From Actinomycetes bacterium (lineage in GTDB: Bacteria > Actinomycetota > CALGFH01): 64,000 nucleotides of DNA. The position numbers were made by a program, and so were the translations under genes. Below the pieces are notes generated by a model. It had not been told where the DNA came from. It saw nothing but the letters and a program-made list of their open reading frames with translations, and did not search any database. Where the stretch lies: the NCBI GenBank assembly GCA_036000965.1, contig DASYUT010000265.1:24555-88554 (forward strand), written 5' to 3'. Below, piece by piece: positions 6,365 through 48,316 of this stretch (its first letter is position 1; every line of letters begins with the position of its first letter).

Positions 6365-7351
6365 ATGAGAATGGAATCCTCGGTGGTGTCCGTCTCCTGG
6401 ATCCCGTGGGGCGCTGTCGAAGGGATGGTCAAGGTCCCTTTCGAGATGGGTGTCGCCCACTACGACATGCCGCCCCCGGACCGGCTCACCGACCTCCAGG
6501 CGCTGCTGGCCTCCAGCGCCGTCCGGTTCGCCAACGAGCTGCGGGCCTGGGTCGAGATGGACGGTGGCAAGGTCACCGGGTGCGGGCACGTCGGCAAGGG
6601 GCACATGGGGTCCACCAGCATGCGCGTGGCCGGCCTGGGCGTGACCTTCCCCGGGGTCAGCTTCCCCGACCTGCGCGGCGAGCCCGAGGTCCGGGAGGAC
6701 GCTGTGCGCTTCACCCAGACGGTCGGTGGACGGGCCGGCATGCCGGCGCCCCGCCGCGTCCGCCGCAGGCCGTTCGCGCAACTCGCCGCGCCGACCGTCT
6801 GGTCGACCCTCGCCCTGACCATCTACGCGGACGGGTCCTCGGACTTCGAGGTGGTGGGGGCGAGCCCGTTCCCCCGCCACTGGATCTACGACCACGACGG
6901 CCGGCTCGCGGCCAAGACCGGCTTCATCGACTTCGAGACCTGGTACCGGGAGTCGTTCGGCGACAAGAGCCCGTGGGGTGACGAGGAGTCGCCGGTGATC
7001 GTGACCGCGGTGGAGAGCGCCCTGGAACGGGAGCTCTCCCGCCTCATCATCGGGTCCGACCCGCCGTTTCGGCGGCTGTCGCCCGGGGAGGCGCTGGTCG
7101 AGCAGGGCGAACCGGGCGAGGAGCTGTTCCTGCTGTTCGACGGCATCCTGTCGCTCGAGCAGGACGGCCGGCCGGTCGTCGAGATCGGCCCTGGAGCGAT
7201 CCTCGGCGAGATGGCGCTGCTCGAAGGGGGCCGTCGCACGGCGACGCTGCGCGCCGTGACCCCGTGCCGGGTCGCGGTCGTGCACGGCGACCGTGTCAAC
7301 CGGGAGATGCTCACCGAGCTCGCTCGGCGGCGCCGCGGGGACGCGCCCTGA
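6365..7351 (+). CDS. Cyclic-nucleotide-binding (cNMP/CAP-effector) domain protein with an uncharacterised N-terminal domain
   Basis: The C-terminal segment GEELFLLFDGILSL...IGPGAILGEMALLEGGRRTATLRAVTPCRVAVV matches the cNMP-binding fold. GGAGGAG lies upstream of the ATG at 6365. Confidence 0.6.
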   Translation: MRMESSVVSVSWIPWGAVEGMVKVPFEMGVAHYDMPPPDRLTDLQALLASSAVRFANELRAWVEMDGGKVTGCGHVGKGHMGSTSMRVAGLGVTFPGVSFPDLRGEPEVREDAVRFTQTVGGRAGMPAPRRVRRRPFAQLAAPTVWSTLALTIYADGSSDFEVVGASPFPRHWIYDHDGRLAAKTGFIDFETWYRESFGDKSPWGDEESPVIVTAVESALERELSRLIIGSDPPFRRLSPGEALVEQGEPGEELFLLFDGILSLEQDGRPVVEIGPGAILGEMALLEGGRRTATLRAVTPCRVAVVHGDRVNREMLTELARRRRGDAP

Positions 7352-7409
7352 CCGCGGTGACAGCCTATCCTGGTGCTCCTCCGTCCAGCGACAGCCGTGG
7401 AGGGCGGGC

Positions 7410-10196
7410 GTGACCTGCGCGAACTGTGGAGAGGTCAACCCCGGTCAGGCGCGGTTCTGCCTCAACTGCGGTGCGCCGCTGGGTGCCGGCGGGCGGTGGC
7501 GCGGCGCCCGCAAGGTGGTGACCGTCGTCTTCAGCGACGTCACCGGCTCGACCGCGCTCGGCGAGCGGCTCGACACCGAGTCGCTCAGCCGGATCATGGC
7601 CCGCTACTTCGACGCGATGCGGACGCTGGTCGAGTGGCACCACGGCGTGGTGCAGAAGTTCGTCGGGGACGCGGTCGTCGCGGTGTTCGGCGTCCCGATC
7701 GTGCGCGAGGACGACGCACTACGGGCCGTCCGGGCCGCCGCAGCCATGCAGGACCACCTTGCGGAGCTGAATGCCGCCCTCGCCCGGGACTGGGGTGTCG
7801 GTCTGAGGATCCGCATCGGGGTCAGCACCGGGGAGGTGATGGTCGGCGACGCGCGCCTCGGCGGCGCGCTGGTGATCGGCGACACGGTCAACCTGGCCAC
7901 CCGGCTCGAGGCGGCGGCCAGGCCTGGGGAGATCCTGCTGGACCGGAGGACCTGGCACCTGGCCCGCGACGCAGTGGTGGTGGTCGAGGTGACGCCCGAG
8001 CAGCTCGCCGGCAGTGGCATCCCCGGCGCTGCCTACCGGCTCATCGACGTCTCGCCCGACGTCCCTGGCCACCTCCGCCGCCAGGACAGCCCGCTGGTCG
8101 GCCGTGACGACGAGCTCCGGCTCTTCGACTGGATCCGCCGACGGAGCACCAGGGAGTCCACCTGCCACCTGCTCACCGTGCTGGGCGCCGCCGGGGTGGG
8201 CAAGTCGCGCCTGGTCGCCGAGGCCGTCGGCGCTGCCGGCAGGCAGGCCACCGCCCTGGTCGGGCACTGCCCCCCCGACGCCGAGGGCAACACCTTCTGG
8301 CCGATCGCCGAGGTCGTCCGTGGGGCGGCCGAGGTCAAGAGCGCCGACTCGCCCGACGAGGCCCAGGGCAAGCTGACCGAGCTGCTCTCCGACGCCCCCG
8401 ACGGGCCACGGGTCGCGGGCCGCATCGGCCGGCTCATCGGCCTGGAGGCGACGCCGCTGCCGGCGGAGGAGACGGGCTGGGCCGTCCGGCGGTTCCTCGA
8501 GGTGCTGGCCAGCCGCAAGACCCTGGTGGCCCGCCTCGACCACCTCGACGGCTGGGAGCGGGCGGTGCTGGAGCGGGGCGCGGTCGTCGGCGAGGTGTTC
8601 GAGCGGGCGGCAGTGGTCGAGCTGTCACCGTCGGACGTCCGACCGGCCGTCCCGGACCACCTGCTCTCGCTCATCAGGAAGGAGCTGCTGCGCTCGGCCC
8701 GGTCCGGGCTGTCCGGCGGGGAGGCGTTCCGGTTCCGCCACCTGCTCGTCCGCGACGCCGCCTACGGCGCCATGCCCAAGCAGGCCAGGGCCGACCTGCA
8801 CGAGCGCTTCGCGGCCTGGCTGGAGCGAACCGTGGGCGAGCGGGTGCGCGAGTACGAGGAGATCATCGGCCACCACCTCGAGCAGGCCTACCGCTACCGC
8901 TCCGAGCTGGGACCGACCGACGCCGGGGCGCGAGCCGTCGCCGCCCGGGCCGCCGGGCAGCTGGCCGCAGCCGGGAACCACGCCTTCGCACGGGCGGACA
9001 TGCCGGCAGCGGCCAACCTTCTCGGCCGCGCCGCCGCGCTGCTCCCGGACACCGACGCGGGGCGCCTGGAGCTGCTTCCGAACCTCGCCCGGGCGCTCAC
9101 CGACAGCGGCAGGTTGTCCCTGGCGGAGGCGACGCTCACGCAGGCGACCGAGCTCGCCCGCGCCACCGGTGACCGCCGCGCCGAGGCCCACGCCGAGCTG
9201 GGGCGGTACTGGCTGCGGTACTACGCCGGGCGCGGAGGCTGGCTCGAGGACACCATGCGTGGCGCGGAGCAGCTCATCCCGGTCTTCGAGCGGCTCGGCG
9301 ACGACGCCGGCCTCGCCAAGACGTGGCGGCTGCTCTCCGAGGTGCACCTGACCCGCCTCCACATCGCCGCCAGCGAGGCGGCGGCGGCGCGCGCCGTCGA
9401 GCACGCCCGGCGGGCCGGAGACGAAAATGCGGAGGCGTCCGGCCTCGGCCACCTCGCCGTCGCCGGGGCATGGGGACGCAGGCCCGTGCCTGACGGCATC
9501 CGTCGCACCGAGGCCATCCTGGCAGAGGCCCGGGGCCGCCGGGACGTCGAGGCCGCCGCGTTGAAGGGGCTTGCCGGCCTGCGGGCGATGAGCGGCGACT
9601 TCGACGCGGCCAGGGAGCTCATGGCCCGCCACCGGGCGATCATCCAGGAGATCGGGCGCAAGCTGGTGCTCGGCGGGAGCGCGCAGATGGCCGCCTACGT
9701 GGAGATGCTGGCCGGCGACGCCCGCGGTGCCGAGCGGGAGCTGCGCCGTGGCTACGAGATCCTGGACTCGGCCAGCGACCGCGCCTACCTGCCGGCCGTG
9801 GCCGCCATGCTCGCCCACGCGCTCGAAGCCCAGGGCCGCTACCAGGAGGCCGAGCGGTATCTCGAGCGAGCCTGGGCCATGGCGGTCAGCAGGCGAACTG
9901 CCAGGCTGCCCACCGGTCGGCGAGCCGTGCGTAGACGGCCTCGTGCTGGCAGGCCGAGTCCTCCCAACGGAACCGGGTCGCCACCCGCCGCCCCGCCGCA
10001 CCGAGTCGCGCCCGCAGCTCGCTGTCGGTCGCCGTCGTGCGCATCGCGTCCGCCAGTGCGGCGACGTCGCCCGGGGCCACCAGGAGCGCGTCCCTCCCGC
10101 CGACCAGGTATTCGCGGAACACGGGAATGTCGGTGGCGATCACGGGGAGACGCGCGGCCATCGCTTCGAGCACCACCAGGCCCCAACCCTCCTTGA
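7410..10196 (+). CDS. Adenylate/guanylate cyclase (class III) with N-terminal zinc ribbon, central AAA/NB-ARC-like ATPase and C-terminal TPR region
   Basis: Zinc ribbon CANCGEVNPGQARFCLNCGAPL. Cyclase motifs VVTVVFSDVTGSTAL, FVGDAVVAVFG and IGDTVNLATRLE, then a P-loop GAAGVGKS and TPR-like repeats. GGAGGG lies 5 nt before the GTG at 7410. The last ~100 aa are low-complexity and overlap the convergent GT gene, so the true C-terminus is uncertain. Confidence 0.75.
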   Translation: MTCANCGEVNPGQARFCLNCGAPLGAGGRWRGARKVVTVVFSDVTGSTALGERLDTESLSRIMARYFDAMRTLVEWHHGVVQKFVGDAVVAVFGVPIVREDDALRAVRAAAAMQDHLAELNAALARDWGVGLRIRIGVSTGEVMVGDARLGGALVIGDTVNLATRLEAAARPGEILLDRRTWHLARDAVVVVEVTPEQLAGSGIPGAAYRLIDVSPDVPGHLRRQDSPLVGRDDELRLFDWIRRRSTRESTCHLLTVLGAAGVGKSRLVAEAVGAAGRQATALVGHCPPDAEGNTFWPIAEVVRGAAEVKSADSPDEAQGKLTELLSDAPDGPRVAGRIGRLIGLEATPLPAEETGWAVRRFLEVLASRKTLVARLDHLDGWERAVLERGAVVGEVFERAAVVELSPSDVRPAVPDHLLSLIRKELLRSARSGLSGGEAFRFRHLLVRDAAYGAMPKQARADLHERFAAWLERTVGERVREYEEIIGHHLEQAYRYRSELGPTDAGARAVAARAAGQLAAAGNHAFARADMPAAANLLGRAAALLPDTDAGRLELLPNLARALTDSGRLSLAEATLTQATELARATGDRRAEAHAELGRYWLRYYAGRGGWLEDTMRGAEQLIPVFERLGDDAGLAKTWRLLSEVHLTRLHIAASEAAAARAVEHARRAGDENAEASGLGHLAVAGAWGRRPVPDGIRRTEAILAEARGRRDVEAAALKGLAGLRAMSGDFDAARELMARHRAIIQEIGRKLVLGGSAQMAAYVEMLAGDARGAERELRRGYEILDSASDRAYLPAVAAMLAHALEAQGRYQEAERYLERAWAMAVSRRTARLPTGRRAVRRRPRAGRPSPPNGTGSPPAAPPHRVAPAARCRSPSCASRPPVRRRRPGPPGARPSRRPGIRGTRECRWRSRGDARPSLRAPPGPNPP

Positions 10197-11121
10197 GGGA
10201 GGGGAACACGAACGCGTCGGCTGCCTGGTACCAGCAGGGAAGCTCCTGGTCCGGGACCGTGCCGAGCAGGACGACGTCCCGGCCCAGCTCGAGTCCTGAC
10301 GCCCGAGCCCGGGTCAGGACGCGGTCGCGGTAGGCGGCGTAGTCCTGGAACGAGTGGCCGCCGACGACCGCGAGCACGGGCGAGGGCTGCAGGGTGCGCC
10401 GCAGCGCGGCCATTGCCTCGATGAGCTCGGCGGCGCCTTTGCGTGGCTCGATGCCGCCGACGGTGAGGAAGAGGAAGCGGCCCTCCGCGCCCACCCTGGC
10501 GCGGAACGGACCTGGGTCGAAGGCCGGCACCCGGGCGAAGCGCTCGGCGTCGACCCCGTTGCGCACGACCTCGGCCGCCACGCCGTACTCCTCCTCGAGC
10601 ACCCGCCGCCACCAGTGGCTCACCACGAGGACGTGGTCGGGCTCGAGGATGGCCCGGCGCTGGCACTCGACCAGCGCCTGCGTGGTGAAGTCGTCGACGT
10701 GGTGGACGGTCCGCACCACCAGCACCGGCGCGCCGAGGTCGCGGACGCGCGCGGCGGCCCGGGCCGAGATGCAGTCCTGGGCGTGGAGGATGCGGGAGGC
10801 GGGCTGCAGGGCGGCCAGCCCTTCGGCGAGGACGTCGACCGACCGGAACACCCGCTCCTCGAGGTCGGGTGCTGGCGGCGGCGTGGGGATGATGGTGTGC
10901 TGGACCGTCGTGGGCCGGAAGAAGCCGGCCTCCGGGTCGCCGAGCGCCACGACGCGCACGGGCATGCCGAGCCGGTGGAGCGCCTCGGCCAGCTGCAGCG
11001 TGTGCACCACACCGCCCCGGGGCCTGGTCGAGTACGTCACCAGGACGACGTCGGCGCTGACCGGGCGCTCCTCCTGCTCCCGACCGGGCCCCGGCCCGCC
11101 CGCCGACGTAACGGGGGCCAC
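9886..11121 (-). CDS. GT4 family glycosyltransferase (MshA/MSMEG_0565-like)
   Basis: The N-terminal domain (VVLVTYSTRPRGGVVHTLQLAEALHRLGMPVRVVAL) and the C-terminal EGWGLVVLEAMAARLPVIATD motif fit GT4. The stop TGA is at 9886. The start is ambiguous: GTG at 11121 or GTG at 11181 inside the tandem repeat. Confidence 0.7.
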   Translation of the reverse strand: MAPVTSAGGPGPGREQEERPVSADVVLVTYSTRPRGGVVHTLQLAEALHRLGMPVRVVALGDPEAGFFRPTTVQHTIIPTPPPAPDLEERVFRSVDVLAEGLAALQPASRILHAQDCISARAAARVRDLGAPVLVVRTVHHVDDFTTQALVECQRRAILEPDHVLVVSHWWRRVLEEEYGVAAEVVRNGVDAERFARVPAFDPGPFRARVGAEGRFLFLTVGGIEPRKGAAELIEAMAALRRTLQPSPVLAVVGGHSFQDYAAYRDRVLTRARASGLELGRDVVLLGTVPDQELPCWYQAADAFVFPSLKEGWGLVVLEAMAARLPVIATDIPVFREYLVGGRDALLVAPGDVAALADAMRTTATDSELRARLGAAGRRVATRFRWEDSACQHEAVYARLADRWAAWQFAC

Positions 11122-11127
11122 CCCCGC

Positions 11128-11274
11128 TGGCCTCACGGGAACCCGCCCGCCGGCGTCACGGGGCCCGCCCGCCGGCGTCACGGGACCCCGCCCGCCGGCG
11201 TCACGGGACCCCGCCCGCCGGCGTCACGGGGCCCCGCCCGCCGGCGTCACGGGGCCCCGCCCGCGGTCTCGGGG
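11128..11274. repeat. 22/23-bp tandem repeat x~6 (ccccgcccgccggcgtcacgggg)
   Basis: Units at 11142, 11164, 11186, 11209 and 11232, plus a partial copy at 11255. The unit is not a multiple of 3. The array spans the fdrA stop codon and the GT 5' region. Confidence 0.8.
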
Positions 11275-12809
11275 CGACGGGCGGCGACGGCGGCGGCCAC
11301 GACCGCGCCGCGGGCCGCCGTCGGCACCACGATGCAGCCGGCGTCCAGCAGCTTCCGGCACTGCTCCCAGCGGCCCTGCGGGTCGCGGTCGGTGCCGAGG
11401 ACGTAGGCGACCACCTGCGGCCCGCCGCGCTGGGCCATCACCTCGGCGCAGGCCGGGGCCAGCACGCCGGCCGGATCGGGATGGACGCCGTGACCGAGGA
11501 CCACGTCGACGAGCACCACTGCCGTGGACGGGTCGCGCCCCTCTCGGAGGATGGGCTCGGTGCGCGCGCCGGGGTCGAGCATCGGGTGTGGGCGGCCCCT
11601 GGTGAACTCCTCCTCGCCGACGTCGAGGCAGATGTGGCCGGCCGGCGGGGCCGGGAGGCCCCAGGCCGGCCGCAGCGGCGTGTTGGAGTGGACGGGCCCG
11701 AGCCGGGCCGACAGCACCACCATCGCCTCGTAGCAGAGGGTGCCGCCGGAGAACACGCCCCGCACCGCACGCCGGCCCGGCGCGAGCCGCGCGCAGGCAC
11801 GCCCGGCCGCCTCCGCGAGCCCGGCCCCGGGGTCGGGGCACGACCTGCCGAGCTTGGCGAGGACGTCGAGCACGCCCCGCTCGGCGGTGGCGGCCGCCGT
11901 CACCCCCCGCCGCTCCGGGATCGGCGCGTCGAGCCCGATCAGGACGGCCACCAGCGGCTTGGTGCCGGCCGTGTCGAGCACGGCCGCGGCCACGTCCTCG
12001 TCGGGCGGCTTGGACACCAGCAGGATCGCCTCGGTGGCCTCGTCGCGCTCGAGGGCCTCGATGGCGAGGCGGGCCATGCGCCCACCGACCTGGCGGGAGA
12101 GGTCGCGGCCGCCGACGCCGATCACGTGGGAGACGCCTGCGCCCCACCGGTCGAGCAGGCTCATGACCTCCTGGGCTCCCGTGCCCGCGGCAGCCACGAT
12201 CCCCACCGGGCCCCGGGCGACCGCGTTGGCAAACCCCAGCCCGATCCCGCCCAGCATGGCCGTGCCAGCGCCCGGGCCCATCACCAGGCGCCCGGCCGCC
12301 TGGGCCCGGGCCTTGAGCGCCGCCTCCTGCTCCACCGGCACGTTGTCGCTGAACAGCAGGACGTGCAGCCCGGCCGACAGCGCCTTGTGAGCCTCGAGCA
12401 CCGCGTAGGGGCCGGGCACGGAGACGACCGCCGTGTTGGCCCCCGGGAGCAGGGCGAGCCCCTCGTCGAGCGTCCTCGGCCGCGGCTCGCGTCCCGCCTG
12501 GCACCCGCGTCCCGCCTGGGGCTCGCGCCCGGGCTCGCCGAGGAGCGCCCGCTCGGCGGTTGCCAGCGCCGCCCCGGCGGCCTCGGCGGAGGCCGCCCGC
12601 ACAGCTAGCACGAGGTCGTTGGCACCGACCGTGGGCAGCTCCCCGGACCCGAAGCCCTCCGACTCGAGCATCTGGAGATTCGCCGGGGTGCCCATCAGCG
12701 CCCCCGCCCACGCCACCCCCGGCGTCTCGAGCATCGCCCGGGAGCCGGCCATCAGCCGGACCGAGTCGAGGTAGGTGGCCGGGTGGACACGGGTGCGCGC
12801 GACCGTCAC
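11247..12809 (-). CDS. fdrA: FdrA family protein (acyl-CoA-synthetase NDP-forming-like; oxamate carbamoyltransferase subunit AllF-like)
   Basis: Collinear similarity to E. coli FdrA throughout: an N-terminus ending YLDSVRLMAGS, then LVMGPGAGTAM, GVSHVIGVGGRDLS, LVSKPP and GRPHPMLDP. The GTG start at 12809 overlaps the upstream ORF's TGA (GTGA). Confidence 0.8.
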   Translation of the reverse strand: MTVARTRVHPATYLDSVRLMAGSRAMLETPGVAWAGALMGTPANLQMLESEGFGSGELPTVGANDLVLAVRAASAEAAGAALATAERALLGEPGREPQAGRGCQAGREPRPRTLDEGLALLPGANTAVVSVPGPYAVLEAHKALSAGLHVLLFSDNVPVEQEAALKARAQAAGRLVMGPGAGTAMLGGIGLGFANAVARGPVGIVAAAGTGAQEVMSLLDRWGAGVSHVIGVGGRDLSRQVGGRMARLAIEALERDEATEAILLVSKPPDEDVAAAVLDTAGTKPLVAVLIGLDAPIPERRGVTAAATAERGVLDVLAKLGRSCPDPGAGLAEAAGRACARLAPGRRAVRGVFSGGTLCYEAMVVLSARLGPVHSNTPLRPAWGLPAPPAGHICLDVGEEEFTRGRPHPMLDPGARTEPILREGRDPSTAVVLVDVVLGHGVHPDPAGVLAPACAEVMAQRGGPQVVAYVLGTDRDPQGRWEQCRKLLDAGCIVVPTAARGAVVAAAVAARRPETAGGAP

Positions 12810-13094: not shown

Positions 13095-13763
13095 ATGATC
13101 CCTGCCATGCCTCCCGACCCTGCGAGCCCCCAGGGCGAGGTCCCGGACGAGGTCGTGCGCCGCTGGCGTGCTGCCGAGGAGCAGCTCTACCCGGTCGTCA
13201 TGACCCGGCCCGACCTCTACGAGCGCAGCATCCAGCTCGTGCGGGCCGTGGCCGACGAGCTGCGGCCGCTCACCACCCCGGCGGCGCTGCTGGCGGCGTA
13301 CGCGGGCGCCGCCGAGCTCGTGGCCGTCGTGATCCAGCGACAGGACCTGGCCGTCGAGGGCCTGGACTTCGGGCTCGCGACCGACGCCGCGTTCAGCCTG
13401 CGCTACCGCGAGGTCCTTGGCGAGGTCGCCCGGGAGCAGGCCATGGAGCGGGTCCGGGCGGCCAGGGAGCGGGGCGACGAGTGGGTGCTCCTGCACGAGA
13501 GCGGCACGCTCGCCCACGCACCGGCGGTGCCCTACCGCCGACTCGAGATGCGCCTCCGGGACGGCGCCGGCCTGCACATGTTCGTCCAGCAGGACCCGGC
13601 CACGGCCGGGCCGCTGTACGGGGTCGAGGCGGTGCAGCTCGACCCCCACACCGGCGACTGGCTGACCGACGCGGCCCCCTGGGCGCGGTCCGAGACGTTC
13701 GGCCAGCCGGAGCCCTGGCGGCGGCTGGCCGAGGAGCTGCGCGGGCGCCGGCAGAACCCTTGA
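13095..13763 (+). CDS. Hypothetical protein
   Basis: Clean 222-aa ORF with GGAGG 5 nt before the ATG. The composition is not an antisense artefact. It is the first gene of the plus-strand cassette ahead of the amidohydrolase, rSAM-like and GNAT genes. Confidence 0.5.
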   Translation: MIPAMPPDPASPQGEVPDEVVRRWRAAEEQLYPVVMTRPDLYERSIQLVRAVADELRPLTTPAALLAAYAGAAELVAVVIQRQDLAVEGLDFGLATDAAFSLRYREVLGEVAREQAMERVRAARERGDEWVLLHESGTLAHAPAVPYRRLEMRLRDGAGLHMFVQQDPATAGPLYGVEAVQLDPHTGDWLTDAAPWARSETFGQPEPWRRLAEELRGRRQNP

Positions 13764-13860
13764 CACCCTCCGCACCAAGCCCCCGACACCCTCCGCACCA
13801 ACCCTTGACACACCTTCCGCACCGTGGAAGATTTCCTTTAGTAGATGCCACTCTTCCAAA
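13759..13860 (+). promoter_or_regulatory. Three ~22-bp direct repeats each carrying TTGACA/CCGACA, followed by an AT-richer stretch; candidate promoter for the amidohydrolase/rSAM/GNAT genes
   Basis: ccTTGACAccctccgcaccaagccc, ccgacaccctccgcaccaaccc and TTGACAcaccttccgcaccgtgg, then gaagatttcctttagtagatg. Confidence 0.4.
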
Positions 13861-13898: not shown

Positions 13899-14759
13899 AT
13901 GGCCAGCGAGCGAGTCCCCCGGCGAGTGATCGACGGCCATAGCCACATCGGAGAGATGGCGGCGTGGCGCTTCTACGACCTGAAGGAGCCGGTCAAGCCC
14001 ACGGTCTACGAGTTCGCCACCACCGGGGACTACATGGCCCACCTGGACCGTCTCGGCGTCGAGCGGGCACTGGTGATCTCCAACTACGGGATCCCCCAGC
14101 AGGAGCAGCCGTTCTCCCTGAACCCGCTCGTGCTCGACTCGGTGCAGGCCTCTGACCGGCTCTGCGGTGCGCTCTGGGTCTCGTTCCTGCCGCAGAACAG
14201 GGAGCGGACCCTCGAGGCGCTGAAGCACGCCGGCGAGGCGCGCGTCGTCGCCCTCAAGACGACCTTCCTGCTCGGCGGCAACCCGAACCCGGAGACCTGG
14301 GACGAGGAGACGGCCGCGCTGGCCGAGGCCTGCTTCGCCGCCGCCGAAGAGCACGACCTGGTGTTCCACTTCCACACCAGCCCCGGCGGCGCCTCGGACA
14401 TCAGCAACTTCATCCCGCTGGTCGAGCGGTACGGCAGGCGGGTGAAGCTCTACCTCGTCCACTTCGGCGGCGGCGTCAGCGGGCACATCCGGCTGGTGCC
14501 GCGGTTCCTGGACTGGGTCGAGGAGGGGTACAAGGTCTACACCGACACCACGTGGTGCATCGGCTTCGGCCCCCGCTGGCTGCTCAGCGAGATCGAGCGC
14601 CGCGACGTCGGGCACGACCGGGTGATCTTCGCCTCCGACGAGCCGTGGAGCGACTTCTGGGGCGAGTACTGGAAGATCGCCGGCGCCCGCGCCAGCTCGG
14701 AGCTGAAGGAGCGGGTCTTCCACCAGAACTTCGAGGACCTGTATGGGCACCGGTGGTGA
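13899..14759 (+). CDS. Amidohydrolase family 2 (TIM-barrel metal-dependent hydrolase)
   Basis: VIDGHSHIG at the N-terminus, an HFH motif and a C-terminal acidic residue pattern. GAGAGGTGGG precedes the ATG at 13899. Confidence 0.75.
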   Translation: MASERVPRRVIDGHSHIGEMAAWRFYDLKEPVKPTVYEFATTGDYMAHLDRLGVERALVISNYGIPQQEQPFSLNPLVLDSVQASDRLCGALWVSFLPQNRERTLEALKHAGEARVVALKTTFLLGGNPNPETWDEETAALAEACFAAAEEHDLVFHFHTSPGGASDISNFIPLVERYGRRVKLYLVHFGGGVSGHIRLVPRFLDWVEEGYKVYTDTTWCIGFGPRWLLSEIERRDVGHDRVIFASDEPWSDFWGEYWKIAGARASSELKERVFHQNFEDLYGHRW

Positions 14760-15918
14760 CGCCCGGCCGGACCGCCTGGAGCGCGCGAGGCCCGTGGTGA
14801 CGCCGGAGCTCGGCCGCGTGATCACCGAGCTGCAGAGCGAGGGCTTGCGGATCGAGCAGCCGGTGGAGGCCCGGCGGGGCGGCGCCGGGCCCTCCGACGC
14901 CGGGATGATCTGGGTCGAGGGCATCCCGGTGACCGTCCCCGTGAGTGCCGACTACGTCGCCGGCTCCCCGTTCGTGCTGCGCCGGGAGGACCAGGGCTGG
15001 GGGATCTACCGCCGCGGGCAGCGGGTCGCCTCCGCCGACCCGCTCGAGCGGCCCCGCTTCTACGACCTCAGCACCGCCGACGGCATCCCGTACTGGAAGA
15101 TCGCACTGCTCCACCTCGACTCGCTGGCCAGCACCGTGCTGCAGACCTGCGCCTACTGGGGCACCGACGACCAGTGCCACTTCTGCGGCATCGAGCTGTC
15201 GCTCGAGGCCGGTCGGACGATCGCGGTGAAGCGCCCGGAGCAGCTCGCCGAGGTCGCCGTGGCCGCCAAGGCGCTCGACGGCGTGGTCGACGTGACCCTC
15301 ACGACCGGCAGCACCCACGGCCCCGACCGGGGCGCGCGGTACCTGGGCCGCTGTGCTCACGCGGTCAAGCAGGCGAGCGGGCTGCCCGTCGAGGGGCAGT
15401 TCGAGCCGCCCGCCGACCTCGGCGTCCTGGACGAGGTCCACGAAGCGGGCCTGGACTCGGTCGGCATGCACGTGGAGTCGTTCGACCCGCAGGTGCTGGC
15501 CCGGATCGCGCCGGCCAAGGCCCGCACCGGCATCGACGGGTACTTCCGGGCCTGGGAGCGGGCGGTCGAGGTGTTCGGCGCAGGCCAGGTCTCGACCTAC
15601 GTGATCCTCGGCATGGGCGAGGACCCCGGGGTGACCGTCGAGGGCTGCCGGCGGGCCATCGACATGGGCGTCTACCCGTTCGTCGTGCCGCTCCGGCCCG
15701 TGCCAGGCAGCCTCATGGAGCACTGCCGGCCCCCCACCGCCGACGACATGGACGCCGTGTACCGCCAGGTGGCCCCCTACCTGGTGGCCCGGGGGGTGGC
15801 GTCGTGGGACGTCCGCGCCGGCTGCGCCCGTTGCCAGGCGTGCTCGGCCATCTCCATCCTGGAGCGGGACCTTGCCAGCGACCAGCGCACCCATCTCCCC
15901 ATTCTCGACGTGCGCTGA
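14743..15918 (+). CDS. Putative radical-SAM-like protein with a non-canonical CX9CX2C cysteine motif (resembles the Nit1C/MSMEG_0568-cluster radical SAM)
   Basis: The cluster CAYWGTDDQCHFCG sits in a region consistent with a SAM-radical core. The ATG overlaps the amidohydrolase stop, with GAGGA 6 nt upstream. Confidence 0.5.
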   Translation: MGTGGDARPDRLERARPVVTPELGRVITELQSEGLRIEQPVEARRGGAGPSDAGMIWVEGIPVTVPVSADYVAGSPFVLRREDQGWGIYRRGQRVASADPLERPRFYDLSTADGIPYWKIALLHLDSLASTVLQTCAYWGTDDQCHFCGIELSLEAGRTIAVKRPEQLAEVAVAAKALDGVVDVTLTTGSTHGPDRGARYLGRCAHAVKQASGLPVEGQFEPPADLGVLDEVHEAGLDSVGMHVESFDPQVLARIAPAKARTGIDGYFRAWERAVEVFGAGQVSTYVILGMGEDPGVTVEGCRRAIDMGVYPFVVPLRPVPGSLMEHCRPPTADDMDAVYRQVAPYLVARGVASWDVRAGCARCQACSAISILERDLASDQRTHLPILDVR

Positions 15919-38415: not shown

Positions 38416-39237
38416 TCAGCGGGCCACCTTGCCGCCCTGGACGCTGTCGGACCCGGCCAGCCGCTGCGCGAGGTAGACGGGGACGACGGACAACAGGATC
38501 GCGATCACGCCGACCGCGTTGACGATGGGTCCCTGGTTCGGCCGCGAGTAGTTGCGCAGGATCCAGATGGGCAGCGTGGGGTCGTCGCCCACCGTGAACG
38601 TGGTCACGATGACCTCGTCGAAGCTGAGAGCGAAGGCCAGCAGCGCGCCGGCCAGCAGCGCGGTCCGAACGGCTGGGAAGGTCACGAAGCGGAAGGTCTG
38701 CCAGGGGTCCGCACCAAGATCGAGCGACGCCTCCTCCAGGTTGCGGGCGGTGCGGCGCAGGCGGGCGACCACGTTGTTGAACACGATCACGATGCAGAAC
38801 GTCGCGTGGCCAACGATGATCGTGAAGGTGCCGAACGGCAGGCCGCCCAGCAGCGGCGCCTCCGAGAACGTCGCGTTGAGGGCCATGCCGGTCACGATCC
38901 CGGGCAGCGCGATGGGGATCACCACCAGGAACGAGACGGTGTCCCGGCCGAAGAACCGGTAGCGCTGCACCGCGAAGGCGGCCAGGGTGCCGAGGACCAG
39001 GGCGATGAGCGTCGCCCCCAGCCCGACCCTCACCGAGGTGAGCAGCGCGGCGCGGGCGCCCGCGTTGGTCAGCGCCCGGCCGAACCACTCCAGGGAGAGT
39101 CCGTCGATCGGCCAGCGCTGCACCCGCGAGCGGTTGAACGCGTACACGGTGAGCACGACGATCGGCGCGTACAGGAAGGCGAGCGTGAACGCGCTGCCGG
39201 CCCGCAGGGCGACCCTGGCCAGGCGCGACTGGATCAT
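38416..39237 (-). CDS. ABC transporter permease (PotC/PotI-like, spermidine/putrescine type)
   Basis: Six-TM permease with the EAA-like loop region. The ATG at 39237 overlaps the stop of the upstream permease (ATGA). Confidence 0.75.
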   Translation of the reverse strand: MIQSRLARVALRAGSAFTLAFLYAPIVVLTVYAFNRSRVQRWPIDGLSLEWFGRALTNAGARAALLTSVRVGLGATLIALVLGTLAAFAVQRYRFFGRDTVSFLVVIPIALPGIVTGMALNATFSEAPLLGGLPFGTFTIIVGHATFCIVIVFNNVVARLRRTARNLEEASLDLGADPWQTFRFVTFPAVRTALLAGALLAFALSFDEVIVTTFTVGDDPTLPIWILRNYSRPNQGPIVNAVGVIAILLSVVPVYLAQRLAGSDSVQGGKVAR

Positions 39238-40142
39238 CACAGGCTCTCGAACGCTCCCAGCCTGCGGGCGATCAGCAGGTAGACGATCATGATGAGGATG
39301 GGCACGGTCGCGAAGGCCGCCGCGAGCGGCAGGTTGCCCGCCACGCCCACGTTGGCATACACGACGTTGCCGATGAACTGGGTGCTGGAGACGAGCTGGG
39401 GCGTGATGTAGTCGCCCAGCGTCAGCGAGAACGTGAAGATCGACCCGGCCGCCACAGCGGGGAGCGCCAGTGGCAGGATCACCCGCCGGAAGGTGGTCGT
39501 CGTCGGAGCGCCGAGGTCGCCCGACGCCTCCAGCAGGGAGTCCGGGATCCTCTCCAGGCCGGCGTAGATCGGCAGGATCATGTACGGCAGCCACAGGTAG
39601 CTGAACACCAGCCAGGTGGCGACGTTGCCGAAGCCCGGGCCCCGGAGCCCCAGCGGCTCCAGCACCCAGTTCACCACGCCGTCCTCGGACAGCATGATCC
39701 GCCAGGCGTACACCTTGACCAGATAGCTGGCCCACAGGGGCATGAGCACGGCGACCACCAGCAGCCGGCGCGCGCGCGGCGTGGCCACCTTGGCCATGGT
39801 GAAGGCGACCGGGAACGCCAGCACGGCGGTGGTCAGCGTCACTGCGGCGGCGATCGCGGCCGTCCGCAGCGTGATCGACCGGTAGACCGGCTCCTGGACG
39901 AGCTGCCGGAAGTTGCCGAGGCCGAACTCCTTGACGAGGTTGCCGAAGTCGCCCAGCCGCCAGAACGCGGCTGCCAGCAGGACCGCGAGCGCGCCGAAGT
40001 AGGCGATCACCAGCCAGCCGACCGGGCCGGCGAGCAGCAGACCGAGCTGGAGCCGGCGGCGGCCGCGGAGCAGCCTCGCCACGCGCCGCACGAGCCCCGG
40101 TGAGGCACGCCCGGCAGGCGCGGTGGTGGCCGTGGTCACCAC
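39237..40142 (-). CDS. ABC transporter permease (PotB/PotH-like)
   Basis: TM permease, second of the pair. GTG start assigned at 40142, downstream of the SBP stop. Confidence 0.7.
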   Translation of the reverse strand: MVTTATTAPAGRASPGLVRRVARLLRGRRRLQLGLLLAGPVGWLVIAYFGALAVLLAAAFWRLGDFGNLVKEFGLGNFRQLVQEPVYRSITLRTAAIAAAVTLTTAVLAFPVAFTMAKVATPRARRLLVVAVLMPLWASYLVKVYAWRIMLSEDGVVNWVLEPLGLRGPGFGNVATWLVFSYLWLPYMILPIYAGLERIPDSLLEASGDLGAPTTTTFRRVILPLALPAVAAGSIFTFSLTLGDYITPQLVSSTQFIGNVVYANVGVAGNLPLAAAFATVPILIMIVYLLIARRLGAFESL

Positions 40143-40176
40143 CGCGCCCCAGGCGCCGGCAGCCCGGAGGGGGCTG

Positions 40177-41379
40177 TCAGCCCTTGATCTCCGTCCATGC
40201 CCGGACCCACTCGGAGTAGTCCTTGCACACGCTGCCGCGGTCGTCGCCACACTTCTTCACCGGCGTGGTCCAGTACGCCACGCGGCTGAAGTAGGCCTCG
40301 TCGTCGGCGTGAAACGTCTTGCAGTGGTTCTTGTCGGCCGTCTCCTGGCACGACAACCGGTTGGCCGGCGCCTCGCCGAAGAACTCGGCAACCTGTGCGT
40401 TGGCCTTGGGGGACACGATCCAGTCCATCCACAGGTACATGCAGTTGGGGTGCTTGGCCTTGGACGAGATCATCCAGGTGTCGGACCAGCCCGTGGCGCC
40501 CTCCTTGGGCAGGGTGACCCCGACCGGCACCTTCTCGGCCTCCAGCAGGTTGGCGATCACCTGCCAGGTCGTGCCGACCACCGAGTTGCGGTTGGTGAAC
40601 GCGGCGACCTCCTTGGTGTAGTCCGACCAGTACTCGCCGATGACGGACCGCTGCCCCTTGAGCAGGTCGACGGAGGCTTGGAGCTGCCGGTCGTCCAGCT
40701 CGTACGGGTTGGTGATGCCGAGCTCGGGCTTGGTCGCCTTCAGGTACAGCGCGGCGTCGGCGATGTAGATCGGACTGTCGTAGGCCGTGACCTTGCCCTT
40801 GTAGGGGGAGTTCGGGTCGAACACCACGCCCCAGCTGTCCGGCGCCTGCTTGACCACGTCCGAGCGCCACATGAGCAGATTCGCGCCGCGGCCGTGGGGG
40901 ATGCCGTAGTTGACGCCGTCCACGGTGTTGTGCGGCTTGTCCTTGAGCCCGTCGAACACCTCCTTGTAGCTGGGGACAAGGTCGACGTTGACAGGGCTCA
41001 CCTCACCCGTGGCGATCAGCCGCAGGGTCGCGTCGCCGGAGGCGGAGACGCCGTCGTACTTGCCGCTCTTCATCAGCGTGACCATCTCGTCGGAGGTGTT
41101 GCCAACGGTGACGTTGACGTTGCAGCCGGTCTTCTTCTCGAAGGGCGTCACCCAGTCCACCTTCGGGTCGGTCGAGCCGTCCTCCACGTAGCCGGCCCAC
41201 GCGACCAGGTCGACCCGGCCCTCACCCTGGCCGAGCTGGGCGAGGGCCGTGGGCTTGGACGCCCCGGTGTCCCCTCCACCCCCGCCCCCGCTGCCGCCGC
41301 CATCGCCCCCGCAGGCGGCAAGCAGCAGGAGCAGTCCGATGACGAGGATGGCTGTCCGTCGACGTACCACGGTCCCCAC
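40177..41379 (-). CDS. ABC transporter substrate-binding lipoprotein (PotD/PotF-like polyamine-binding)
   Basis: Signal peptide with lipobox LLLAACGG. Periplasmic-binding-protein fold similar to spermidine/putrescine SBPs. Confidence 0.8.
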   Translation of the reverse strand: MGTVVRRRTAILVIGLLLLLAACGGDGGGSGGGGGGDTGASKPTALAQLGQGEGRVDLVAWAGYVEDGSTDPKVDWVTPFEKKTGCNVNVTVGNTSDEMVTLMKSGKYDGVSASGDATLRLIATGEVSPVNVDLVPSYKEVFDGLKDKPHNTVDGVNYGIPHGRGANLLMWRSDVVKQAPDSWGVVFDPNSPYKGKVTAYDSPIYIADAALYLKATKPELGITNPYELDDRQLQASVDLLKGQRSVIGEYWSDYTKEVAAFTNRNSVVGTTWQVIANLLEAEKVPVGVTLPKEGATGWSDTWMISSKAKHPNCMYLWMDWIVSPKANAQVAEFFGEAPANRLSCQETADKNHCKTFHADDEAYFSRVAYWTTPVKKCGDDRGSVCKDYSEWVRAWTEIKG

Positions 41380-41395
41380 CTTTCTGTCGCGGCCG

Positions 41396-42637
41396 TCACT
41401 CCGGCAGCAGCAGGTTGTGCTGCCGGTCCCACACCAGCCGGACCGGCCGCCCCTTGGCGGCCAGCACCTCCATCGACGAGGTGGCGAGGTTCTGCTGGGT
41501 CACGACCAGCTCGCCGCCCACGTCCAGGCGCACCACGAAGCGCGTCTGCGAGCCGAGGTAGGCGACGTCGGCGACGACTCCGGTGGCGGTGCTCTCGCCG
41601 GCGCCTGGCGTCCCGTCCAGCTCGGTGATCCGGATCTTCTCGGGCCGGACGGTGAAGGTGCCGTCCCGGCCGGTGACCGCCCGCGCGGCCTCGCCCCCGA
41701 GGAGGTTCGACGTGCCCACAAAGCCGGCCACGAACGCGCTGCCCGGTCGCTCGTACAGCTCGGCCGGCGTGGCGATCTGCTCGATCCGGCCTTGGCTGAA
41801 GACGGCGATGCGGTCGCTCATCGTGAGAGCCTCGTCCTGGTCGTGGGTGACGAACACGAACGTGATCCCCACCTCGTGCTGGATCGCCTTCAGCTCGCGC
41901 TGCATCTCCTCGCGCAGCTTGCGGTCCAGGGCGCCGAGGGGCTCGTCGAGCAGCAGCACACTCGGCCGGTTGACCAGCGCCCTGGCCAGCGCCACGCGCT
42001 GGCGCTGCCCGCCGGACAGCTGGGAAGGCCGCCGGCCGCCGAAGCCCTCCAGCCGGACCAGACGCAGTGCGTCGGCCACGCGCGCGGTGCGCTCCGCCTT
42101 GGCCACCTTCTTCACCAGCAGCCCGTAGGCCACGTTGCCGGCGACGCTCATGTGCGGGAAGAGGGCGTAGTCCTGGAACACGGTATTGACGTCGCGCTCG
42201 TAGGGCGGGCGGTCGGTGACGTCCTCACCGTGGAGCAGGACCCGGCCCGCAGTCGGCGTCTCGAAGCCGGCGATCAGCCGCAGGCAGGTGGTCTTGCCGG
42301 AGCCGGAGGGGCCGAGCAGCGAGAAGAACTCGCCAGCGCGGACCTCCAGATCGACCCCGGCCACGGCCTCGACGTCGCCGAACCGCTTGACCACCCCGGC
42401 GAGGCGGACGGCCGCCTGGCCAGGTGACGCGGCTGGGGCCCGCCCGTCGACGCCGGGCTGGTCCGCGCCCGGCCGCCTGGCCCGCCCGAGGGTGTCCAGC
42501 GCCCAGGCGCCCCCACCCTGGCCGGATGCAGGCTGGCCGGATCCAGGCTGGCCGGATCCAGGCTGGCCGGATCCAAGCTGGCCGGATCCAAGCTGGCCGG
42601 ATCCAAGTTGGGAGGGAGCCTCGTCAGGACCTGTCAT
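41396..42637 (-). CDS. ABC transporter ATP-binding protein (PotA/PotG-like) with N-terminal (L/PGSGQ)6 repeat extension
   Basis: Walker A GPSGSGKTT, signature LSGGQRQRVALARAL, Walker B VLLLDEPLGALD and a C-terminal TOBE-like domain. ATG at 42637 with GAGGAGGGG immediately upstream. Confidence 0.8.
   Translation of the reverse strand: MTGPDEAPSQLGSGQLGSGQLGSGQPGSGQPGSGQPASGQGGGAWALDTLGRARRPGADQPGVDGRAPAASPGQAAVRLAGVVKRFGDVEAVAGVDLEVRAGEFFSLLGPSGSGKTTCLRLIAGFETPTAGRVLLHGEDVTDRPPYERDVNTVFQDYALFPHMSVAGNVAYGLLVKKVAKAERTARVADALRLVRLEGFGGRRPSQLSGGQRQRVALARALVNRPSVLLLDEPLGALDRKLREEMQRELKAIQHEVGITFVFVTHDQDEALTMSDRIAVFSQGRIEQIATPAELYERPGSAFVAGFVGTSNLLGGEAARAVTGRDGTFTVRPEKIRITELDGTPGAGESTATGVVADVAYLGSQTRFVVRLDVGGELVVTQQNLATSSMEVLAAKGRPVRLVWDRQHNLLLPE
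42518..42607 (-). repeat. 15-bp in-frame tandem repeat x6 (ctggccggatccagg) encoding (L/P)GSGQ repeats
   Basis: Six consecutive 15-bp units. The translation is LGSGQLGSGQLGSGQPGSGQPGSGQPASGQ. Confidence 0.75.
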
Positions 42638-42732
42638 CCCCCTCCTCTTCCGCAGGCCAGACAGCGGCCTTCCACCGAGGCCGAGCCGCTGAGGCCAAAG
42701 CATGACGGGAGAGCAAGCACCCAGCAAGAGCA

Positions 42733-45210
42733 TCACTCCGCCCAGGTTCGAGCGAGCGACTGCAGGGCCTCGACAGCCGGGCCGACATCGATCTGCTGCT
42801 CACCCTCCTGCCCGGCCGGGACGAGGGGGAGGAGCATCTGATGGGCGGGGCGGAGCGCCGTTCCGAGGTCGGCGGGGGTCAGGCCGCGGCGTGCCACCGC
42901 CCAGGATGCCACCAACGCCTCGATCCCGACGACCACCCATGCACTCTGGAGCAGCCGCTCCGCCTCGGCCAGCGCATGGGGCGCGAGACCGGCGACATCC
43001 TCCACCCCTTCCGCGAGCTGCCCGTGGTAGTGGGGGGTGACCGGCATCGCCGCGATCGACGAGGTTGCGACGTGGGCGGCGACGATGTAGCTGAGGTTGA
43101 GGAACTGGGCTCCGCCCGAGGCGCCCGCCTCGGCGGCCAGTCCCATGGGAAGGCCGCTGAAGCTCGACCAGTGCAGCTTGTGGGTTCGTTCCGCGCTCGC
43201 CCGAAGCGCCTTGGCCAGCGCCAGCCTGAGCGCGTCCATGGTGATGGCGAGCAGCGTCGTCTCCGGGTTGCCGTGAGACACCAGCTCGCCGGTTGCCAAG
43301 TCGACCAGGGGGTTGTCGACCGTCGCGTTGAGCTCCCGCTCCCAGGTCTGCCAGGTCCAGGCGAGGGTCTCCCGGCCCGCGCCGCTCACCTGGGGGACGC
43401 AGCGGAAGCTGAGCGGGTCCTGGAGGAACCGCGGTTCGCCGGGTCGCCACAGGCGACTGCCCGCAAGCAGCCGGCGGAGCCGTTCCCCCGCCCACCGGTG
43501 GCCGGGCTGGGGGTGGGCCTGGTCGACGACGGCGCTCCATGCCTGCGGGTTGCCGCGGAAGCCCTCCAGCGCCAGCGCCGCGGCGATGTCCATGGCGATG
43601 AGGAGCCTGCGCGCCTCTGCCAGGACGAGCGCGCCGCGACCGAGGGTGAGGCTGTTGTTGTTGACGAGGGCCAGCGCCTCCTTCGGTGCGGGGGAAGCGG
43701 GCGCGGCCGGCGGCTGCTCCGGCCCGCGCCCGTCGCCCGCGAGCAGCGTGCCGCCACCGACCAGGGGCAGCGCCAGCTGCGCGAGCGCCACGAGGTCCGA
43801 GGCGCCCACCGAGCTGCCGAGGTCGACTGCTGGCAAGCGGTCGTCGCGCAGGTTGGCCAGCAACCATTCGACCAGCGCGGGCCGGACCCCGGAGCGCCCG
43901 CTGGCAAAGAGGTTCACCTGGATCGCCATGCAGGCGCGCACGAGCTCCGCCGGCGCCACGGGCCCGGGCGAGCGCGTGGCGTGTGCGTAGAGCAGCTGCC
44001 GGTTGAACTCCTGCAGCCGCTCCGTCTCGATCATGTAGTCCTTCTGGGAGCCCACCCCTGTCGTGGTGCCGTACGCCCGCACGCGCTGGTCCACGAGCTG
44101 CTCGACCACGGCTCGCCCCCGGGCGATCCGCTGCCACGCCGCTTGCGGGACCTCGACTGTGGCCGTGCCGCTGGCGATGCGTTCCACGTCGTCGATCCGA
44201 AGGCTCTCGCCGTCGAGCAGCACGGGAGCCGTGCTGGGACCGGCCTCGTCCAGGACGCCCTGCCGCGTCGGCATGGGGACCCTCCGCTTGGCCGCGTGCA
44301 TGAGGTGGAGCAGTAGCCGGATCACCGTGTCGGACGTCGTCTGGCCGACGTCCAGCGAGGGGAGGAGGCCGACGACGCAGACGCCGACGACCCTGCCGCG
44401 CGCCGAGAGGCCGCGCAGCAGGGCGGCTGCCTCGTGGAAGAGCAGGCCGCCCTGGCGTGGGCGGCTCGTCCCTGGCGCGATCGACGGGTCGAGGCCGTCC
44501 ACGTCCAGGGTGACGAGGAACCGCCCGCCTTCCGGAAGCCGGCCCAGCAGCCAGTCCACGCCGTGCATCCGCACGTCGACGGCGTCGACCAGCAGCGTGC
44601 CGGCGTCCCGGGCGTCCCGGGCGTCCCGGGCGTCCCGATGCGCCTCGATCTGGACGACATGGGGTGGCCCCGAGCCCTCGTAGGCTTGGAGCACGCACTG
44701 TGGGATGGAGCCGTCGCCGCCGAGCACGATCGGCACGACGTCGCGTTCGACGAGCGCATGGACCACCCGGGTCGTGCCTTCCCGCTGGAGGGCCGGGTCA
44801 CGCGGGTCGGCAGGGACGTCGCCGCAGTCCACGAGCGACACGGGGCCGCCGTCGAGGACGTCGCCGGCGTCGTGCGAGAGCAACCCCGCGAACCGCTGCG
44901 AGCGTCGTCGGAGCACCGCTGGGGCGTCGCAGGCGTCGGACCCGGCCCCGTGAGCGTCCGACCCGGCCACGTGTGCGTCCGACCCGGCCCCGTGAGCGTC
45001 CGATGCAGCCCCGTGTGCGTCAGACCTGGCCACGTGTGCATCCGATGCAGCCCCGTGTGCGTCGGACCTGGTCCCGTGCGCGTCGGACGGTGCTCCGCAG
45101 GGCGCTCCGACCACCGCGAAGCCGGTGGCCACGGTAGACGGGTCGTGGTGCGCCGGAGCATCGAGGAAGGTGCCCGCCTCCCGGCCAGGTGGCAGCAGGG
45201 TGATGGCCAT
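42733..45210 (-). CDS. Fusion ORF: arginase/formiminoglutamase-family ureohydrolase domain (N-terminal) + histidine/aromatic ammonia-lyase-family domain (C-terminal) with degenerate MIO motif
   Basis: N-terminal domain VPIVLGGDGSI...LVTLDVDGLDP (ureohydrolase). C-terminal domain with a HAL-like N-terminus (LLDGESLRIDDV...AYGTTTGVGSQKD), but SVGAS-D replaces the Ala-Ser-Gly MIO triad. No stop separates the domains. ATG at 45210 with GGAGGAAGG upstream. Confidence 0.55.
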   Translation of the reverse strand: MAITLLPPGREAGTFLDAPAHHDPSTVATGFAVVGAPCGAPSDAHGTRSDAHGAASDAHVARSDAHGAASDAHGAGSDAHVAGSDAHGAGSDACDAPAVLRRRSQRFAGLLSHDAGDVLDGGPVSLVDCGDVPADPRDPALQREGTTRVVHALVERDVVPIVLGGDGSIPQCVLQAYEGSGPPHVVQIEAHRDARDARDARDAGTLLVDAVDVRMHGVDWLLGRLPEGGRFLVTLDVDGLDPSIAPGTSRPRQGGLLFHEAAALLRGLSARGRVVGVCVVGLLPSLDVGQTTSDTVIRLLLHLMHAAKRRVPMPTRQGVLDEAGPSTAPVLLDGESLRIDDVERIASGTATVEVPQAAWQRIARGRAVVEQLVDQRVRAYGTTTGVGSQKDYMIETERLQEFNRQLLYAHATRSPGPVAPAELVRACMAIQVNLFASGRSGVRPALVEWLLANLRDDRLPAVDLGSSVGASDLVALAQLALPLVGGGTLLAGDGRGPEQPPAAPASPAPKEALALVNNNSLTLGRGALVLAEARRLLIAMDIAAALALEGFRGNPQAWSAVVDQAHPQPGHRWAGERLRRLLAGSRLWRPGEPRFLQDPLSFRCVPQVSGAGRETLAWTWQTWERELNATVDNPLVDLATGELVSHGNPETTLLAITMDALRLALAKALRASAERTHKLHWSSFSGLPMGLAAEAGASGGAQFLNLSYIVAAHVATSSIAAMPVTPHYHGQLAEGVEDVAGLAPHALAEAERLLQSAWVVVGIEALVASWAVARRGLTPADLGTALRPAHQMLLPLVPAGQEGEQQIDVGPAVEALQSLARTWAE
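44932..45085 (-). repeat. 21-bp in-frame tandem repeat x7 encoding (SDAHGAx)n inside the arginase-like N-terminal region
   Basis: gcgtccgacccggccccgtga and its variants are repeated consecutively. Confidence 0.75.
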
Positions 45211-45388
45211 CCTTCCTCCGTGCTGTCGAGGGTCAGGGAACGGGGACGTCGCCACCGTGCCAGATATTCTTGCGCCTCGGGGCCTCCGCCGAGCCGTGCC
45301 GGACCCCTCGAGGCTGCGCCGAGCGTGCCGGACGCCTCCGGGCCTCCCCGAGGCGTGCCCGACCACGCCGATGCCGGCGGACCGCCGG

Positions 45389-48300: not shown

Positions 48301-48316
48301 CGGGGACGAGACCAGG

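Follow-up and report, generated by a model that had tools for sequence, protein, structure and literature searches.

A variable 23-bp tandem repeat at the stop/start junction of an FdrA-like gene and a glycosyltransferase gene in an uncultured actinobacterium

A short sequence is repeated head to tail where an FdrA-like gene ends and a glycosyltransferase gene begins in a 64-kb stretch of actinobacterial DNA, the whole of which was analysed here and is referred to as the window. A sequence-only reading had proposed that changes in copy number could alter the FdrA C terminus and the glycosyltransferase N terminus or its expression in a phase-variation-like way. We asked how the array is built, how it varies, where it came from and what it would do to the translation of its neighbors.

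The upstream gene (minus strand, 11247..12809) has its probable start at GTG 12809 and its TGA stop at 11249..11247, and encodes a succinyl-CoA-synthetase-alpha-like protein. Pfam domains Ligase_CoA and CoA_binding were found in this protein, with HMA_AllF_N in its relatives, and it scored 386.6 bits against NF004760, which is under the NCBI cutoff of 433. By domain content it is FdrA/AllF-like only, as the FdrA family cutoff was not reached. The downstream gene, on the same strand, has a longest open reading frame of 431 aa (9886..11181) and is a GT4 glycosyltransferase (GT) of the MSMEG_0565 family, with a score of 379.6 bits against TIGR04047 (cutoff 259.85). A radical SAM gene of the MSMEG_0568 family at 14743-15918 (412.8 bits versus a cutoff of 303.7) indicates that the locus belongs to the conserved MSMEG_0565-0572 cluster. 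At the other end of the GT, a plus-strand 967-aa ORF (7293-10196, a cyclase/ATPase-like regulator) shares about 310 bp (9886-10196) with the GT 3′ end. Its C terminus is R/P-rich over roughly 110 residues and apparently out of frame, which could reflect a frameshift or a spurious extension.

TRF located the array at 11095..11264 on the minus strand, with a period of 23, 7.4 copies, 87% matches and a score of 254. This result indicated that the 23-bp repeat noticed earlier is real, and the count of six given for it is fair for the GTG-bearing copies. The span of 11128-11274 assigned to it, however, has to be shifted, since good repeat similarity starts from about 11264-11266 and the lower edge lies at about 11095-11086. 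When units were defined on the coding strand from each GTGA, which is present in six of them, the array consisted of five near-identical units of 22-23 bp, one diverged unit of 24 bp and one decayed unit. Unit 1 (11228..11250, 23 bp, GTGACGCCGGCGGGCGGGGCCCC) carries the FdrA-like stop, the TGA of which falls inside the first GTGA (11250-11247). Unit 2 (11205..11227, 23 bp, GTGACGCCGGCGGGCGGGGTCCC) and unit 3 (11182..11204, 23 bp) have the same sequence, and unit 4 (11160..11181, 22 bp) is shorter by one G and provides, with GTG 11181, the first start of the long GT ORF. Unit 5 (11137..11159, 23 bp, ...GGGTTCCC) is the last full unit, so that the full units of the window allele measure 23, 23, 23, 22, and 23 bp. 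It is followed by the diverged unit 6 (11113..11136, 24 bp, GTGAGGCCAGCGGGGGTGGCCCCC), which has retained its GTGA despite changes at about one in four of the remaining positions, and the GTG of which (11136) is in the GT frame. Unit 7 (11086..11112, GTTACGTCGGCGGGCGGGCC...) is decayed and reads GTTA, having lost both the start and the TGA.

Each unit represents a whole junction module, composed of a G-rich Shine-Dalgarno (SD) remnant, a CCCC spacer, a GTG and then an A, and each contains the palindrome CGCCGGCG. The SD-like element is weak, reading GGGG versus GAGG in close relatives. The RNA of the array region is 87% GC, and the window is 73% GC. Searching the 64-kb window with the 19-nt unit core GTGACGCCGGCGGGCGGGG and allowing up to 3 mismatches, we obtained 6 matches, all of them within the array, where 0.79 were expected and none of 100 shuffles gave 6. 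No other copies of the unit were found in the 64-kb window, nor did the unit occur in tandem form in any of 185,579 GTDB representative genomes. The motif GGNCCCGTGA recurred outside the junction array only in an unrelated 21/42-bp array at 44933-45088, which looks like a coincidence.

The FdrA-like protein ends in ...ETAGGAP*. The sequence-only reading had the units encode its last nine residues; clear repeat sequence covers just the last 5-6 codons, and the preceding three or so resemble the unit weakly. Those codons are ancestral, because array-free relatives end in ...TAGEAP*.

To the window allele we compared three array-bearing contigs (L001, L002, and L006), which represent the same population, derive from JGI metagenome samples and are probably short-read assemblies. 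The flanks of the array were 98.7-99.96% identical among the window and these contigs. L006, with 99.4% identity to the window over 5.7 kb, has five full units of 22, 22, 22, 22, and 23 bp plus two substitutions, and 6 of the 14 difference events that separate it from the window fall inside the array of about 130 bp. L001 (98.7-99.8% identity) carries two full units ahead of units 6-7, and L002 (99.96% identity) ends inside the array, which shows that assemblers struggle there. The 23-bp unit 5 is common to all three alleles, namely those of the window, L001, and L006. That near-identical contigs have different arrays indicates that the array is a polymorphic mutational hotspot, and the outcome named beforehand as refuting the sequence-only reading, an identical copy number in all relatives together with a GT start at 11121, was not what we observed. 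The 5-versus-2 copy difference (68 bp, three units) could be a repeat collapse in assembly, whereas collapse is no explanation for the single-base differences within the L006 units. With head-to-tail copies beyond chance and a make-up that varies between conserved flanks, the array is a variable-number tandem repeat (VNTR), the copy-number part of this assignment being subject to possible collapse.

The unit length has a direct consequence for the reading frame. Because 23 equals 24 minus 1, the GTG of each unit opens an 8-codon ORF (MTPAGGxP) that ends at the next GTGA. On the minus strand of the window, mini-ORF 1 (11224..11250; GTG plus seven codons, MTPAGGAP) is opened by the GTG of unit 1, and its TGA overlaps the next GTG at 11227; mini-ORF 2 (11201..11227, MTPAGGVP*) has its stop overlapping GTG 11204, and mini-ORF 3 (11178..11204, MTPAGGVP*) has its stop overlapping GTG 11181. 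The chain thus runs from GTG 11250 through 11227 and 11204 to 11181, at which point the 22-bp unit 4 puts the frame straight through into the GT. An alternative mini-ORF of the same kind starts from GTG 11159 (minus strand, 11133..11159, MTPAGGFP*), its stop overlapping GTG 11136. In L006 the chain comprises ORFs of 15, 15, and 8 codons, and in L001 it comprises two 8-codon ORFs; both end at the unit-6 GTG, the equivalent of 11136, which is the sole possible GT start in these two alleles. In all three alleles, 4-nt overlaps thus connect the FdrA stop to a GT-frame GTG without a break.

We then simulated changes of the array. Using the real units, 9 of 10 single-unit deletions or duplications kept the chain, and the loss of unit 5 alone broke it. 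Among the 511 compositions possible for arrays of 0-8 units, each 22 or 23 bp long, the chain was intact in 341 and broken in the other 170, and it was intact in all 255 that have a 23-bp last unit. Loss of this 23-bp last unit, or a 1-nt deletion therein, would break the chain. The intact chains of the three alleles are no evidence of selection on the relay, for the shared 23-bp last unit guarantees an intact chain in each of them. Moreover, such a relay arises automatically from any junction duplication with a length of 2 mod 3, which has a 1-in-3 chance of occurring.

The start of the GT is ambiguous, as had been suspected from the GTG in every copy. In addition to GTG 11181, in-frame starts are available at GTG 11136 (416 aa) and GTG 11121 (411 aa), and the N terminus reads MTPAGGPRDAGG... 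from 11181 and MRPAGVAPV... from 11136. Position 2 of the TIGR04047 model aligned to residue 45 of the longest ORF, at about position 11049, so the conserved protein does not include the first 44 codons, which take in the lower half of the array. The GTG at 11119..11121 (minus strand), at which an unambiguous start had been envisaged, is GAG in L001, L002, and L006 (11120 T to A) and is disfavored for this reason. A start downstream of the GGAGCAGGAGGAG motif was also rejected, since the GT frame contains no ATG, GTG or TTG between this motif and the conserved VVLVTYS strand. Looking up the exact GT sequence as translated from 11181, 11136, or 11121 retrieved no recorded gene. The JGI gene caller began the GT at an internal GTG (922 in L001 and 135 in L002, corresponding to 11010 in the window), 57 codons downstream; the protein so called (VVHTLQ..., 374 aa) loses the conserved first beta-strand and the GG loop. 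This internal start is a mis-annotation caused by the array.

The origin of the array was sought in relatives of the locus. Scanning GTDB representative genomes with the GT gave 80 loci of 71% identity or less; all are from metagenome-assembled genomes (MAGs), mostly of Actinomycetota, and the best is an unclassified Actinomycetota MAG with 71% identity. That the GTDB representatives include only distant MAG relatives indicates an uncultured lineage as the source of the array. An FdrA/AllF-like gene lies directly upstream of the GT, on the same strand, in 72 of these 80 loci (L007-L086). The loci span Actinomycetota, Dormibacterota and others, with an FdrA-like/GT overlap that is nearly always 4 nt, and an FdrA-like gene seems to accompany the MSMEG_0565-family GT regularly and in tight coupling. 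We assembled a set of 74 loci, consisting of the GTDB loci with an upstream FdrA-like gene and the metagenome relatives, minus the array-bearing contigs. ATGA or GTGA (RTGA) was present at the FdrA-like stop in 71 of the 74, which identifies the 4-nt stop/start overlap as the junction that this gene pair has conserved. In 67 of the 71 RTGA loci the junction RTG shares the GT frame and reads openly into the GT core, and a recognizable SD motif was found upstream of the start in only 31 of these 67.

Four closer relatives, with 84-89% GT identity (L003, L004/L005, L087, and L088/L089), have exactly one junction each. Around it these single-junction relatives carry an imperfect direct repeat with 23-bp spacing, GCGGGCGAGGCCCC-GTGACGgCG-GCGGaCGGGCCC. 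The single junction together with this flanking repeat indicates that the array arose by in-place amplification of the operon's own junction. The annotated GT N termini of the single-junction relatives (MTAADGPGPGPE..., MTSTGGPVDGPE...) align with unit 7, which identifies unit 7 as the original ATG/GTG start site. Its codons now read GTT ACG TCG GCG GGC GGG (V T S A G G), and judging from this alignment the original GT start was inactivated by a single G-to-T change.

Repeats were also seen at the homologous junction of two other loci. L065 (~510-575) has a 33-bp two-copy repeat with GTGA in the second copy, and L043 (~1773-1804) has a 12-bp repeat of 2.7 copies directly after its ATGA; the FdrA-like/GT junction may be recurrently prone to duplication. 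In the relative L004 (86% identity), ABC-transporter genes directly follow the GT (L004 2227-6415), whereas their window homologues (38431-42731) are about 28 kb away from it, a displacement that points to a rearrangement or an insertion between close relatives.

Tandem arrays are not confined to this junction. In the 64-kb window, 12 arrays with a unit of at least 10 bp and a TRF score of at least 100 were detected, compared with none in each of 20 dinucleotide shuffles, and most of the 12 are intergenic on a GC3-based gene map. The lineage thus appears to be generally prone to tandem amplification, which makes the junction array less exceptional. A second 23-bp array (13755-13823, units like AACCCTTGACACCCTCCGCACC), with TTGACA in two of its three units, separates an ORF that ends at 13763 from the amidohydrolase and MSMEG_0568 radical-SAM genes; it has 3 units in the window and 4 in the 99.4%-identical L006, and may alter the promoter architecture for the cluster. 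At 48058-48301, the space separating two convergent genes is taken up entirely by a 17-bp array of 14.5 copies (ACCCGACCAGCCGCCGC), which also covers the final ~25 nt of the plus-strand gene that ends at 48082. A 16-bp array of 7.2 copies (60108-60222, 94% matches) lies directly past the stop of the minus-strand gene 60248-61207, ahead of the following gene on that strand; because neither start nor stop codons occur in its units, it does not form a relay. Two further arrays, at 44933-45089 (21/42 bp) and 45275-45364 (30 bp), are located inside a minus-strand stop-to-stop ORF (42733-45513), and the plus strand of the former contains GGCCCCGTGA twice, a 10-mer shared with the junction units that likewise looks coincidental.

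Taken together, the array is probably a young VNTR that was generated by slippage or unequal exchange at the conserved RTGA junction and is tolerated in the operon as a relay of mini-ORFs. The amplification would have proceeded by slipped-strand mispairing or unequal exchange between the imperfect repeats GCGGGCGAGGCCCC and GCGGaCGGGCCC, which lie 23 bp apart around the RTGA. This direct repeat is the obvious candidate for a slippage substrate, and its spacing would explain the 23-bp period. A ribosome finishing FdrA at the first TGA would restart at the overlapping GTG, read 8 codons (15 where two 22-bp units adjoin), stop at the next TGA and restart again, until it makes its final start at a GT-frame GTG, that is, 11181 in the window and the 11136 equivalent in the other alleles. 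Overlaps of -4 nt lead to strict termination-reinitiation coupling (PMC6728339), and a spacer of about 20 nt nearly abolishes it (PMC10666635). Taken as a plain spacer, the array would separate the first usable GT start from the FdrA stop by at least 110 nt; it may be tolerated because a -4 overlap is offered at every step instead of an uncoupling spacer of about 110 nt. We consider this relay geometry the most likely reason why an expansion was tolerated at so conserved a junction.

The same model predicts the effects of the array on both proteins. The FdrA C terminus would be left unchanged, the GT would carry an N-terminal extension that varies by up to 15 residues between alleles, and GT output would at most be dampened stepwise as re-initiation steps increase. 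Re-initiation at each GTG, and any effect of the array on expression, is what we infer from the arrangement of codons, and strong folding of the 87% GC array RNA (about -170 kcal/mol) could block re-initiation. A further step would be to regard the array as a natural "translational relay," a self-copying stop/start module in which the number and 22/23-bp make-up of units would set the count of serial re-initiation steps between the two proteins, tune the FdrA-like:GT ratio at population level and, in rare compositions, uncouple the genes, and which would illustrate the beginning of MIRU-type coupled repeats before dispersal; we consider this extension rather doubtful.

Several other explanations were weighed against the mini-ORF relay. 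One of them holds that the array is a neutral, untranslated spacer, with the GT initiated de novo at 11136 or 11181, its coupling to FdrA lost and the mini-ORFs incidental. Such a spacer would be consistent with a relay geometry that comes as a 1-in-3 by-product of the unit length, with an SD-like motif degraded relative to that of the relatives, and with the 12 arrays absent from shuffled sequence, which suggest a general mutational tendency; the recognizable SD in only 31 of 67 in-frame-overlap relatives also leaves a requirement for coupling in this group in doubt. The RTGA overlap kept in 71 of 74 relatives argues against it, for junction coupling is apparently under long-term constraint, as do the GTGA retained in the diverged unit 6 and the absence of a broken chain among the three alleles seen. 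We therefore regard the neutral spacer as a possible but less than likely explanation. Misassembly as the source of the array or of its variation is extremely unlikely. It is true that L001, L002, and L006 come from JGI metagenome samples and that L002 ends inside the array; nevertheless, the window and three contigs from other samples share the array, its flanks and units 5-7, and the single-base changes within the L006 units are unlike repeat collapse.

A structured RNA or DNA element acting independently of translation, such as a REP-like stabilizer, an attenuator or a protein-binding array, might be suspected from the palindrome in each unit and from the very stable predicted fold of the 241-nt sense strand (-169.8 kcal/mol). 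This fold, however, was no better than that of dinucleotide shuffles (-168.2 ± 5.3 kcal/mol; z = -0.29), 72 of 200 of which were at least as stable, so that a structured RNA was rejected on stem-loop stability. An Rfam search of 10500-12000 returned no match at E ≤1, no internal promoter-like or terminator-like site was found, and the unit is absent elsewhere in the window and from the representative genomes in tandem form. Such an element is thus very improbable.

Simple-sequence contingency loci have units of 1-7 nt inside an ORF or a promoter, each step of which shifts the frame. The array resembles them in that a slippage-prone repeat marks the 5′ end of a glycosyltransferase gene of the surface-sugar type. 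In a phase-variable switch, gain or loss of a unit or of a single G would toggle GT expression or alter the FdrA C terminus. Near-identical contigs do differ in the number and length (22/23 bp) of their units, losing unit 5 or shortening the last unit to 22 bp would bring ribosomes into the GT out of frame, and 170 of the 511 possible compositions are broken. Unlike those of contingency loci, however, the units here each reset the frame with their own stop and start, so that most changes are silent. The FdrA stop always falls within the first unit and is thereby fixed, each of the three alleles is "on," the path to the GT survives 9 of 10 simulated single-unit changes, no promoter-like site is present, and GTG 11136 would be usable for independent initiation even in a broken allele. 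The earlier proposals of a copy-number-dependent FdrA C terminus and of a phase-variation-like switch are thus not borne out, and we judge the switch improbable. Residual switch-like behavior from a 22-bp last unit or from loss of the last unit, in about one third of compositions, is a weak possibility.

The array, read as an amplified junction, was also compared with known systems. Of these, the mycobacterial MIRU-VNTR comes closest (Supply et al. 1997, described in PMC12548453, PMC3184786, and PMC2734929); the array is not a member of that family. As in MIRU-VNTRs, tandem repeats separate genes that are co-transcribed in an actinobacterial operon, copy number varies from strain to strain, and there is a small ORF per unit, the ends of which overlap the stop or start of its neighbors at -4 nt; in our case these are the GTGA-linked chains of 8- or 15-codon ORFs in all three alleles. 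In MIRUs, a -4 nt overlap couples the ORF to the gene downstream, an arrangement considered to minimize the effect of insertion (PMC12548453). In contrast, MIRU units measure 40-100 bp (PMC2734929, PMC3184786), compared with 22-24 bp here, which is below that size range, and MIRUs are scattered over some 40-50 loci per genome, where they appear to have been inserted with duplication of the target site (PMC12548453, PMC3184786, PMC2734929). The array unit derives from the operon's own junction, which is single-copy in relatives, rather than from an inserted element, no dispersal was detected for it (in the 64-kb window, and in tandem form in GTDB representatives), and its host is an uncultured soil actinobacterium and not Mycobacterium.

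Other parallels are partial. Gene pairs overlapping by ATGA or GTGA (PMC6728339, PMC10666635) share the canonical -4 overlap, which is present here on the same strand as RTGA at GTGA 11250-11247, in each following unit and, ancestrally, in 71 of 74 loci; the array differs in repeating the overlap three or four times in series via 8- or 15-codon ORFs. VNTR3239/ETR-F, between rnc and fpg of M. tuberculosis (PMC2734929), is likewise an operon gap of a few bp in relatives that is expanded in one lineage, next to a flanking gene that is otherwise conserved, as at the array. Its units, however, are 55-79 bp, its repeat length was correlated with the mRNA level, and its repeats begin 40 bp past the upstream stop and exclude that stop (PMC2734929). 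In the synthetic bicistronic design (as cited in PMC12548453), a short leader ORF has its stop overlapping the start of the target gene, and each array unit would similarly be a leader mini-ORF predicted to deliver the ribosome to the next start; the array differs in being natural, concatenated and without a strong SD motif.

Overall, the array is a tidy, fairly ordinary variable repeat, neither a new kind of system nor an on/off switch. For annotation, it means that gene callers will place the GT start inconsistently and that short-read assemblies may break or collapse at the array. For the biology of the locus, it illustrates how an operon can accommodate the expansion of a tandem repeat without polar damage, in that the copied unit is a complete stop/start junction. 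Both the single-junction state before amplification and several states after it are present in natural populations, and this allele series would be suited to measuring the efficiency of serial termination-reinitiation in a high-GC actinobacterium. The array also suggests a plausible way in which MIRU-like coupled repeats could originate.
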